From positions 1 to 55,207 of the forward strand of contig JBAYHD010000005.1 in NCBI GenBank assembly GCA_041666305.1: 55,207 nucleotides of DNA. Reading direction: 5' to 3'. Both the position numbers and the translations under genes were made by a program. The notes beneath the pieces are model-generated. The model was not told the origin of the DNA. It was given only the letters and a program-made list of their open reading frames with translations, and made no database searches. The DNA comes from Minisyncoccota bacterium. GTDB taxonomy: Bacteria > Patescibacteriota > Minisyncoccia > Phycocordibacterales > Phycocordibacteraceae. Below, piece by piece: positions 37,530 to 38,761 of the stretch. How positions within the stretch are numbered: position 1 is the first letter of the stretch; every line of letters begins with the position of its first letter.

Positions 37530-38563
37530 GTGCCGGTATTACCGGTATTAATGCAACCCGTCTGCACGGCACTATTTACATCCGCTTGCCAATCTCTAAA
37601 ACTGCCGCCGGCTTGCTGTAGAACGCAAGCCGCCGCCGAAGTACTGCAATCCAGGTCATTAGCTGCTCGGAGGCACTGGTCGACCACCGCACTTTTTGAC
37701 GGTATCGGATTGCCTCTGCTAAATCCGGATGCACAATTGAGCGAACTACTTACTCCGGCAGCCGAGCGGCATACACTATTTTCATAGCAATCAGCATGGC
37801 TCGATAACAGCACTTGGAAAGCACCCGCGGCGGTCGACCCCGGCGATGACTTCGCACTATTCCAATTATAGTTGGGCGGATCTTGCGGCGCGCCACAGTT
37901 GCTTTCCGGTTTTGCAATGCACGCAAACGTATTTGCTTGCACGTTCGTGAGCGTGTACCCGCCTGCGGCCGCAGCCGCCTTCACGACTGCGGGATCACAG
38001 GCGGTGCCGATGCGCGTCCAGGAAGGAGAATTGAGGCCTCCGGTGCTGACACCCGAAGTATTTTGTAGAGCGGATTGGCTGAGGCTTTCTTTAAGTGGGA
38101 TGCAAGTCGTCTTTGAAAGATCGCCTGAGGTAATGAGCTGTGACCATGCTTTGCCGGCAAGGCTCGCATCGGTCGGATGATAGAGCACCGCCATAATGGC
38201 GTCCACGACCAGCCAGCCGGCGAACGCGATGACAATACCGATGATGGTATTGAGTAAGACGCTTTTTGCTTTGGCTATCCCGCCGGAATTCACCGGATTC
38301 ACTACAAAAAGGAACCCGGAATACGCGATCATCAGAGGTGCGACAAAAACGATGACGAGCGTGAGGAGGAAACTGATTATGTTATTGATGACCATTATTA
38401 GCATCCCCCAGCCCGCGGCACAGACATCCGAACCTTGAACTCCCGTAATACTTTGTGGAGGAATGATCGGTCCGAAGAACGGTATCGCCGCATGCGCGAC
38501 CACCGGCAATACGAACGAGCCTGCGATGAGCAGAAACACAAACAAAGGTGCGCGAGAACGCAT
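37526..38563 (-). CDS. TrbC/VirB2-pilin-like N-terminal domain fused to a Cys-rich, possibly SLT/VirB1-like, C-terminal domain
   Basis: 345 aa; signal peptide and two TM helices arranged as in the pilin paralogues. The C-terminal part has ..CIAKPESNCG.. and ..GAFQVL... Its start codon abuts hairpin element copy 3. Confidence 0.5.
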   Translation of the reverse strand: MRSRAPLFVFLLIAGSFVLPVVAHAAIPFFGPIIPPQSITGVQGSDVCAAGWGMLIMVINNIISFLLTLVIVFVAPLMIAYSGFLFVVNPVNSGGIAKAKSVLLNTIIGIVIAFAGWLVVDAIMAVLYHPTDASLAGKAWSQLITSGDLSKTTCIPLKESLSQSALQNTSGVSTGGLNSPSWTRIGTACDPAVVKAAAAAGGYTLTNVQANTFACIAKPESNCGAPQDPPNYNWNSAKSSPGSTAAGAFQVLLSSHADCYENSVCRSAAGVSSSLNCASGFSRGNPIPSKSAVVDQCLRAANDLDCSTSAAACVLQQAGGSFRDWQADVNSAVQTGCINTGNTGT

Positions 38564-38564
38564 A

Positions 38565-38698
38565 CCCGGTTAGGACAACATGGCATTGCTCCTCGTGTCT
38601 ACCGCGAGAAGATGCTTTCGTTGTACGAAAAATAATAAACCGACAAAGCTCCAATAAACGTTTGGGGCAATGACACGATGCCATGTTGTCCTACCGGG
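38565..38698 (-). repeat. Hairpin element copy 3 (134 bp), abuts the start codon of gene 37526-38563
   Basis: Arms CCCGGTTAGGACAACATGGCAT (38565-38586) and ATGCCATGTTGTCCTACCGGG (38678-38698); flanked by CATA at 38561-38564 and 38699-38702. Confidence 0.9.
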
Positions 38699-38761
38699 CA
38701 TAGCTCTATCATACCGCCCTTCAGTTCTGTCGGGACGGCTTTCCCCACTGCTCAAAAAATT

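Follow-up and report, generated by a model that had tools for sequence, protein, structure and literature searches.

The window analysed here (the whole stretch of DNA, 55,207 nt and 53.8% G+C) is a contig of a Minisyncoccota bacterium (JBAYHD010000005.1 in GenBank assembly GCA_041666305.1, also recorded as ENA ERZ27249449 k141_943138) that encodes housekeeping genes together with seven scattered tRNAs. Lying among the housekeeping genes, at spacings of 2.7–16 kb, are four copies of an element of ~134 nt. One of these, copy 3 (positions 38561–38702), immediately precedes a gene for a 345 amino acid signal-peptide protein and was the subject of an original prediction, made from the sequence alone, that compensatory substitutions in an outer stem and two inner helices reflect selection on a folded nucleic acid rather than recent copy-paste. 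The observation is right but its reading needs correction: this is a mobile foldback element with conserved structure, not a stand-alone structured RNA. In our judgement it is probably a non-autonomous foldback DNA transposon resembling a MITE (miniature inverted-repeat transposable element), with imperfect terminal repeats and a target duplication of 4–5 bp.

Insertion at orthologous sites

Repeat finding and motif searches identified exactly four copies in the window (Table 1), the arm motifs occurring 4–5 times against a chance expectation of 0.1–0.3. Copy 1 is inverted with respect to the other three. When aligned, the copies have ~35 nt in common at each end and nothing alignable between the ends, and their total lengths differ by 1 nt at most. 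The only open reading frames (ORFs) that the element contains are short and unconserved, with no transposase ORF among them in any of the four copies in 55 kb.

Further copies were sought with the pattern CCCGGTNAGGAC-N(96-126)-GTCCTACCGGG. Species-representative genomes yielded seven loci, all from Patescibacteria (Kaiserbacteria, Paceibacterota and related metagenome-assembled genomes (MAGs)), and metagenomes yielded 31, two of them chance matches; viral contigs gave no pattern match at all. A Streptomyces match and two GC-rich metagenome matches (L001, L022 and L027) were excluded as chance occurrences of the pattern. Removal of duplicates left 37 distinct copies, four from the window and 33 from Patescibacteria MAGs and metagenomes. 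Imperfect terminal inverted repeats of 21–22 nt (CCCGGTAGGAC...GTCCTNACCGGG) are present in all 37, with ends CCCGG...CCGGG, although the search pattern itself dictated 22 arm positions, whose invariance is uninformative. The length between the two flanking ATGs is 136–144 nt, in keeping with the near-fixed length first remarked upon. A covariance model built from the 37 copies found no further full copies in the ~270 kb of the window and loci. It also picked up a truncated copy and a second, distantly related palindromic element of ~146 nt with different ends (GGGGTTTTCCCCGTACACACGAAATGGCAT ... ATGTCATTTCGTGTGACGGGGTTTTCCCC), located at L004:5157-5302, 180 nt from a standard copy; the match to the model is weak (35 bits), and this second element may represent a sister family.

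Orthologous genes lacking the element were located by tblastn of the downstream proteins against all loci. Presence or absence at orthologous sites is the logic that has been applied to bacterial MITEs (PMC3184786), and here it reveals four empty/filled pairs, each showing a clean insertion with an exact direct duplication of 4–5 bp, usually TATG, that is present as a single copy at the empty site. In the case of the peroxiredoxin gene (prx), the empty site in L011, where the protein is 92% identical, reads ...AAAGCTTATGAAAGAAACC (with TGGTATCAT-25 nt-CTTATGAAAGAAACC), whilst in the window the same upstream sequence (...CACCTATG) is followed by CCTATG, the element (CCCGG...CCGGG) and TATGAAAGAAACT. 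The membrane-protein gene downstream of copy 3 is likewise empty in L011 (GGTATGATACCTGTATGCGTTCC, with a single TATG) and filled in the window (GGTATGATAGAGCTATG-element-TATGCGTTCTC). The greA gene is empty in L009, L013 and L030 and filled in L017 and L021, in all cases behind the same TTGCGC-17-TACAAT promoter. Finally, a pilin-like gene inside an operon is empty in the window, L002 and L024, where stop and start codons are 0–1 nt apart, and filled in L038 with a 5-bp TATGA duplication. The window carries four to five tandem paralogous genes for hydrophobic (pilin-like) proteins of ~90 amino acids at 50100–52500, a homologue of which is the element-bearing gene of L038.

Where the flanks are not TATG they still match each other at the two ends (CTTG/CTTG, GTTG/GTTG, CATG/CATG and CCATG/CCATG). 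In the TTG cases this match must reflect target-site duplication and not base pairing, because pairing would give U·U. Similar interiors are also found at different genes (L034a and L034b; L037, at pgk, versus L014 and L025, at a protease gene), which implies that the interior is copied on transposition. Both the four empty/filled sites and these near-identical paralogous copies contradict the opposition, drawn in the original prediction, between a folded nucleic acid and copy-paste.

A methyltransferase orthologue without the element (L038:2190-2245) has a nine-codon frame (MSPSTYSGL, then stop) that runs from a promoter-proximal ATG to an ATGA overlap with the gene's ATG. The 22-nt segment before this gene may have been left by excision of the element or may be a small duplication; that it is an excision footprint could not be demonstrated.

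Table 1. The four element copies in the window, with the component parts of copy 3
Feature	Position	Strand	Remarks
Copy 1, whole span	29135–29276	+	element 29139–29272; orthologous copy in L011
Copy 1, direct repeats CTTG	29135–29138 and 29273–29276	+	
Copy 1, context	~115 nt upstream of likely topA start (~29388)	+	3′ CTTG plus ACC gives TTGACC, a −35-like box; no start codon there
Copy 2, whole span	35877–36019	−	element 35881–36015
Copy 2, direct repeats TATG (plus strand CATA)	35877–35880 and 36016–36019	−	
Copy 2, target: start codon of peroxiredoxin gene	35220–35879	−	empty site in L011
Copy 3, whole span	38561–38702	−	
Copy 3, target gene: 345-aa secreted or membrane protein	37526–38563	−	Pfam search of the protein without hit
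Copy 3, 3′ copy of 4-bp direct repeat (TATG; plus strand CATA)	38561–38564	−	ATG 38561–38563 is the gene's start codon; ORF MRSRAPLFVFLLIAGSFVLPVVAHA... begins exactly there
Copy 3, terminal inverted repeat, outer-stem 3′ arm	38565–38586	−	gene strand AUGCCAUGUUGUCCUAACCGGG; plus strand CCCGGTTAGGACAACATGGCAT; holds bulged A and in-frame UAA at −9
Copy 3, helix b 3′ strand	38587–38592	−	gene strand GGAGCA; earlier label B (TGCTCC)
Copy 3, helix c 3′ strand	38594–38599	−	gene strand GACACG; earlier label C (CGTGTC)
Copy 3, AT-rich interior	38600–38663	−	unalignable across paralogous copies; consensus structure not predicted
Copy 3, helix b 5′ strand	38664–38669	−	gene strand UGCCCC; earlier label B′ (GGGGCA)
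Copy 3, helix c 5′ strand	38672–38677	−	gene strand CGUGUC; earlier label C′ (GACACG)
Copy 3, terminal inverted repeat, outer-stem 5′ arm	38678–38698	−	gene strand CCCGGUAGGACAACAUGGCAU; plus strand ATGCCATGTTGTCCTACCGGG
Copy 3, 5′ copy of direct repeat (TATG; plus strand CATA)	38699–38702	−	
−10-like hexamer TATGAT	38708–38713	−	6 nt upstream of copy 3's 5′ ATG; consensus match; conserved in L011 empty site
Copy 4, whole span	54892–55034	−	element 54896–55030; seven orthologous copies
Copy 4, direct repeats TATG	54892–54895 and 55031–55034	−	
Copy 4, target: start codon of S-adenosylmethionine (SAM)-methyltransferase gene	54352–54894	−	

Start codons, −35 boxes and the expression of target genes

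The duplicated target conforms to NWTG and is usually TATG. In ~22 of 25 independent insertions (~88%), the 3′ duplication supplies the ATG with which a housekeeping gene starts, at the head of a long ORF with a genuine N-terminus; the proteins concerned include MreB, RNase III, GreA, Fmt, Pgk, MraY, FtsX, a signal-peptide protein, a peroxiredoxin and a methyltransferase. By a crude gene call, start codons make up only ~23% of the window's YATG sites lying clear of coding sequence, so the association goes far beyond what target sequence and gene avoidance would produce. Two of the three exceptional lineages, accounting for four of the five copies not at start codons, have a duplicated TTG that forms the first bases of a −35-like box: TTGACC upstream of topA in copy 1 and L011, and TTGCGC or TTGCGG followed after 17 nt by TGATAGGTT or TGATACATT in L012 and L032. 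The fifth such copy (L039) runs off its contig. At start codons and −35 boxes alike, the duplication regenerates the motif that was split by the insertion.

A consequence of the duplication is that one ATG is left behind the native promoter and another in front of the gene. At start-codon copies, promoter-like sites recognised by consensus match end 6–25 nt before the 5′ ATG, several of them of leaderless type, and this spacer of 6–25 nt lacks a Shine–Dalgarno sequence. The upstream flanks (window 38708–38713; L009, L016, L017, L021, L026 and L035) show a recurrent TTGCGY, 17 nt, TAnnnT arrangement, often with TGn before the second hexamer. The arrangement suggests that these genomes commonly produce leaderless or short-leader mRNAs, and for copy 3 the hexamer TATGAT is, by consensus match, a candidate for the target gene's native promoter, of leaderless type. 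TATAAT- and TATGAA-like strings in the interior were considered as an internal promoter and rejected, as such sites are no more numerous than in shuffled sequences and better promoters lie upstream of the element.

How, then, might genes carrying such an insert stay expressed? At start-codon sites, the native promoter would drive a transcript that starts at, or a few nucleotides before, the upstream copy of the ATG. The whole element would thereby become a 5′ leader, with the outer stem pairing the 5′ end of the mRNA with the region of the gene's ATG and, lengthened by 3–4 pairs through the TATG duplication, burying that ATG. The gene's ATG has no preceding Shine–Dalgarno sequence; the GGAG of helix b (see below) was rejected for this role as it lies 28 nt from the gene's ATG and 2–4 nt from an internal ATG, and covaries and so is unconserved. 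Ribosomes would start at the upstream ATG, as before the insertion, read through the element, sometimes via two or three short frames chained by ATGA, terminate at stops in the 3′ arm (UAG at −15, UAA or UGA at −9) or at a UGA that overlaps the start codon of the gene, on which they would then reinitiate.

The reading frames are consistent with such a termination–reinitiation relay, which is most likely the way in which the target genes stay expressed. The frame from the 5′ ATG (MPGRTTWH...) often spans the entire element and ends at −9 (UAA or UGA), at −15 (UAG) or in an AUGA overlap; in copy 3, 43 codons (MPGRTTWHRV...) cross the whole element to a UAA stop 6 nt before the gene's ATG. Other copies have two or three short frames chained by ATGA overlaps, as in copy 4, where two such frames lead onto the gene's ATG, and its orthologues. 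Stops at −15, −9 or +1 relative to the gene's ATG are far commoner than in shuffled sequence. Following a ribosome from the 5′ ATG and allowing restart from −4 to +16 nt around each stop, the relay gets as far as the ATG of the gene in 10.2 of 17 independent groups, compared with 2.5 in mononucleotide shuffles, 3.3 ± 1.3 in dinucleotide shuffles and 4.5 ± 1.4 in dinucleotide shuffles of the interior only, none of 300 of which reached the observed value. The in-frame stop in the 3′ arm may be provided in either of two ways: TAG occurs with TCA in six lineages and TTG with TAA or TGA in 13, five lineages having neither stop and none having both. A double switch of the arm stop is seen inside the methyltransferase orthologous group (L010), and the 139-nt and 140-nt versions in this group retain the relay via different frames. 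A conserved leader peptide was rejected: the seven methyltransferase orthologues show no excess of third-position change (variable sites number 7, 8 and 10 of 13 at the three positions), and constraint seems to act only on the short frames staying open.

Two further loci bear on where translation begins. At window 29274–29388, the mechanically called topA ORF starts at the TTG of the element's duplication, with the conserved TopA N-terminus (MKRLLIVESP) 38 codons later; the L011 topA orthologue is out of frame in this stretch. In the copy before the RNase HI gene of L033 (1947–2102), GCA takes the place of the 3′ ATG, the arm has no in-frame stop and the only in-frame ATGs lie inside the element. 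The frame from these interior ATGs would lead straight into RNase HI as an N-terminal extension; alternatively, the gene would be a damaged one.

The outer stem and its crossing inner helices

Common to all copies are an outer stem of 21–24 bp and two inner helices, GCUCC/GGAGC (helix b) and CGUGUC/GACACG (helix c). On the gene strand, the 5′ half reads (T)ATG, CCCGGUAGGAC-AAnnnGGCAU, CGUGUC (c1), 1–4 nt, (U)GCUCC (b1) and then ~62 nt of interior, whilst the 3′ half reads GACACG (c2), 0–3 nt, GGAGCA (b2), AUGCCnnnUUGUCCU-N-ACCGGG and (T)ATG. Across the 37 copies, the interior has no conserved sequence and no consensus structure, and there are no conserved loop, junction or unpaired nucleotides.

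The bases underlying the original prediction, checked at their coordinates, are as described: for the variable outer-stem dinucleotide, copy 2 has AA/TT, copy 3 has CA/TG and copies 1 and 4 have CT/AG, and the inner variants (AGCTC/GAGCT and GCTCG/CGAGC for B; GTGCA/TGCAC and GTGCT/AGCAC for C) are correct, as is the order B, C ... B′, C′ that causes the two helices to cross. In copy 3, helix b contains a single C·A mismatch on the gene strand, equivalent to a G·T pair on the plus strand.

The larger set of copies gives statistical support to compensatory change. Pairs were counted on two alignments of the 37 copies, one structure-neutral (MAFFT) and one model-fitted. Paired cells make up 93% of the total (86% in shuffles), pairs changed on both sides number 19 (10 in shuffles) and the covariation score is 0.24 (0.10–0.11 in shuffles), with none of 500 shuffles, which take no account of phylogeny, matching any of the observed values. 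A second control, which keeps relatedness, slides the 3′ partners by 1–3 columns, upon which pairing falls to 30–44%. Double changes are seen at all seven unconstrained positions of the outer stem (for example CG 22, AU 13 and UA 2), at six of six pairs in helix c (variants include CGUGUC, CAUGCC, CGUAUC, CGGGGAU and UGUGCA) and at five of five in helix b (GCUCC, ACUCC, GCUUC, GCUCU, GCUCG and AGCUC), and each of at least eight distinct c variants and at least six b variants is accompanied by its matching partner. Helix b is absent from the covariance model but was predicted independently by RNAalifold, a check proposed along with the original prediction. Compensatory change thus maintains the outer stem together with both of the mutually exclusive inner helices.

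The strand order c1, b1 ... c2, b2 had been taken to imply either alternative conformers or a pseudoknot. Only the former stands. Both c1 and b2 abut the last outer-stem pair, with linkers of 0–3 nt, a geometry on which an H-type pseudoknot was rejected; because both attach directly at the end of the outer stem, it follows from this geometry that b and c cannot coexist and must be alternative conformers. They would form alternative extensions of the same stem, each leaving a bulge of 7–9 nt on one strand.

The fold may be one of RNA or of DNA. Both strands of copy 3 fold to −63.3 kcal/mol, and folding z-scores across copies range from −5.7 to −8.3. An attempt to assign the strand from wobble pairs was dropped: the conspicuous G·U pair seen in 30 copies belongs to the flanking target duplication and lies outside the element, and inside the element mismatches of the G·U and A·C types occur in balanced numbers (3 versus 4, 6 versus 5 and 8 versus 5; 17 versus 14 when counted by pair and lineage). 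An RNA constraint on one strand should produce a clear excess of G·U, so this symmetry leaves an RNA-only constraint unsupported and fits a DNA-level foldback. Judged from the mismatches, the fold cannot be assigned to one RNA strand, and a DNA-level foldback is equally likely. Most likely the foldback would be needed for mobilisation, as single-stranded DNA or a cruciform, and perhaps also as RNA. An Rfam search of the window returned only tRNAs at gathering score, the best E-value on the element being 0.71 (snoRNA models).

Alternative readings and related elements

Several observations weigh against a MITE-like transposon whose targets are translated by relay. An autonomous element or transposase with the same ends was not found, there being no unpaired or widely spaced arms in the ~270 kb of the window and 39 loci and no match in viral contigs. 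The interiors of the four window copies are unrelated, which would be unusual for a recently active MITE family, and retrieval by arm pattern biases the set towards intact copies. By its own rule the relay fails in ~40% of groups, window copy 2 among them, and the short frames bear no codon-position signature. Finally, mean identity in seven orthologous groups is 98% for the arms, 86% for c1/b1, 89% for c2/b2 and 75% for the interior, with the first 84 nt of the gene at ~77% and the 5′ flank at 67%. Half of the arm positions are pattern-fixed, but the other ~20 are equally invariant. Arm conservation of this order at orthologous sites is unexplained by transposition alone and points to a function in place; to this extent the selection on a fold that was originally proposed is upheld. 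Copies are intact or cleanly absent, with no decayed copies seen. Two explanations offer themselves: dependence of the host on the fold and arms, or their maintenance by some process at the DNA level.

The first of these options, that the element transposed in and is now a host-selected structured 5′ leader RNA, is possible but rather doubtful. The 24-bp stem would hide the start codon and protect the 5′ end, and helices b and c would act as a two-state gate, with GCUCC masking GGAG or not, or as a site for RNase III or another protein, thereby co-regulating many housekeeping genes. Besides the constraint on the arms relative to their surroundings and the lack of decay, an exapted leader would account for the identical orientation of all 37 copies relative to the gene, for the promoters just upstream, which would place the full hairpin in the mRNA, and for the presence of one copy before rnc itself (L006). 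It sits poorly with the balance of G·U and A·C events and with an antisense strand that folds equally well. The GGAG to be masked is variable (GAAGC, AGAGC, CGAGC or GAGCU) as well as distant from the ATG, the leader has neither conserved unpaired nucleotides nor interior structure, and no Rfam family matches it. In addition, the copies upstream of a −35 box (L012 and L032) keep their arms and helices as well as the others do, which argues against a purely mRNA-level role. A composite of the two readings, whereby a 'translation-transparent' transposon homed to promoter-proximal WTG motifs, these being −35 boxes and the starts of leaderless or short-leader genes, had them restored by the duplication, passed ribosomes to the gene by way of its own stops and has since been kept by the host as a hairpin-gated leader with a two-helix switch, strikes us as unlikely. 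If it were true, the switch would co-regulate dozens of housekeeping genes in the reduced genomes of the candidate phyla radiation (CPR), which have few transcription factors.

More improbable still is that the element is folded single-stranded DNA acted upon by a site-specific or HUH enzyme instead of a DDE transposase. Structure is conserved more than sequence, there is a conserved extrahelical base, insertion is orientation-specific beside a tetranucleotide, mismatch spectra are strand-symmetric and GTAG occurs inside the 5′ arm. Integron attC sites share several of these properties: their structure is kept whilst sequence and centre vary, and they are imperfect palindromes with a conserved extrahelical base and a similar length range. 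The GTTRRRY/RYYYAAC cores are, however, absent here, the copies are scattered and not in cassette arrays, the ends are CCCGG...CCGGG and the target duplications are variable, and attC was rejected on these grounds, although no search was made for an integrase and no RAYT gene was looked at. REPIN/RAYT and IS200/IS605-derived elements are likewise long, hairpin-forming extragenic repeats that are long stable at orthologous sites, and the strand-symmetric constraints seen here suggest DNA-level recognition of a comparable kind. Such elements, however, lack target duplication and have a hairpin at each end or a REP unit, with a fixed cleavage tetranucleotide in IS200/IS605 (HUH Y1). In the present element the arms pair with each other and the flank is variable and duplicated each time (CTTG, GTTG, CATG, CCATG and the 5-bp TATGA), which fits a staggered cut and not a fixed cleavage site borne by the element, and these types too were rejected.

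A non-mobile host cis-regulatory RNA of riboswitch, thermometer or attenuator type, inherited with each gene, is highly improbable: covarying helices, alternative pairings and a location directly upstream of start codons would suit it, but it is largely refuted by the four empty/filled pairs, the genes targeted are unrelated to one another, certain copies lie away from genes, and a ligand-sensing leader in particular is rejected for want of a conserved unpaired core, of conserved loop or junction sequence and of strand asymmetry in the wobble pairs. We give equally little credence to the absence of any selection on pairing, with covariation reflecting the copying of terminal-repeat subfamilies from different master elements, for although related copies share co-varying states (CAACTT, CAACAT and CAAAAC) and shuffles ignore phylogeny, b and c occur in swapped order at the two ends and are hence not simple terminal repeats, double changes arise within orthologous groups, the numerous b and c variants each have a matching partner and pairing collapses when the partners are slid.

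Returning to the MITE-like transposon, literature searches found no description of a MITE family in Patescibacteria or the CPR. The closest parallels are the Correia elements (CREE/NEMIS) of Neisseria, which are also ~100–155 bp in length, have terminal inverted repeats, a target duplication and no transposase gene, form long hairpins, and are gene-adjacent and co-transcribed. Correia hairpins are processed by RNase III. Correia elements differ in duplicating TA, in their 26-bp terminal repeats and conserved interior, and in not being locked to start codons, whereas the present element, from a Patescibacteria host, has an NWTG duplication of 4–5 bp, interiors that are unrelated between paralogues, ~88% of insertions on ATG starts and crossing helices; it resembles a Correia element in how it works without belonging to that family.

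Two other types of repeat invite comparison. Mycobacterial interspersed repetitive units (MIRUs) are intergenic repeats with tetranucleotide direct repeats and small ORFs whose ends overlap adjacent genes in a polycistron (PMC3184786). They too are translated, coupling-compatible inserts but form units of 40–100 bp, often in tandem, with no full-length 24-bp foldback and no duplication of the start codon. Neisseria REP2 and the Borrelia upstream repeats lie immediately upstream of many unrelated genes, the ATG included (PMC3184786). REP2 carries a promoter and a ribosome-binding site of its own and lacks terminal inverted repeats and a target duplication; in the present element, both promoter and ATG are those of the target, and insertion duplicates the latter. 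Unusual here are the landing at a start codon or −35 box that is repaired by duplication, the apparent translational relay and the two mutually exclusive covarying helices.

The window contains several other repeats. A hairpin at 14025–14121, unlike the element in sequence, has arms of 25 nt with 96% complementarity around a 47-nt loop, its end lying 6 nt before the ATG (14018, minus strand) of a gene encoding a 925 amino acid protein. Two 35-nt sequences (5682–5716 and 43211–43245) are 97% reverse-complementary and each palindromic (ATGTGGGACTTACGAAGTCCCACAT), possibly representing another small repeat family or shared terminators. A perfect palindrome of 27 nt (GCTGGTATGATATATCATACCAGC) that occurs twice (15816–15842 and 25052–25078) consists of two back-to-back TGGTATGAT extended −10-like motifs. 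Lastly, a 34-nt, internally palindromic repeat is found at 22282–22315 and 22576–22609, the two copies being 97% identical and 294 nt apart; the first begins ~50 nt from tRNA-Gln (22161–22232).

Some practical lessons follow from the nature of the element. As the covariation shows, the statistical hallmarks of a structured RNA can also arise in a mobile element, and comparison of G·U with A·C mismatches offers a simple guard against this. Gene callers, for their part, will encounter spurious short ORFs at such insertions and may mis-set or over-extend starts, as for topA in the window and RNase HI in L033. For the biology of these bacteria, the implication is that an essential gene can survive having a 134-nt hairpin inserted between promoter and coding sequence, apparently by means of a translational relay, making the element a natural system for termination–reinitiation and leaderless initiation in unculturable organisms.

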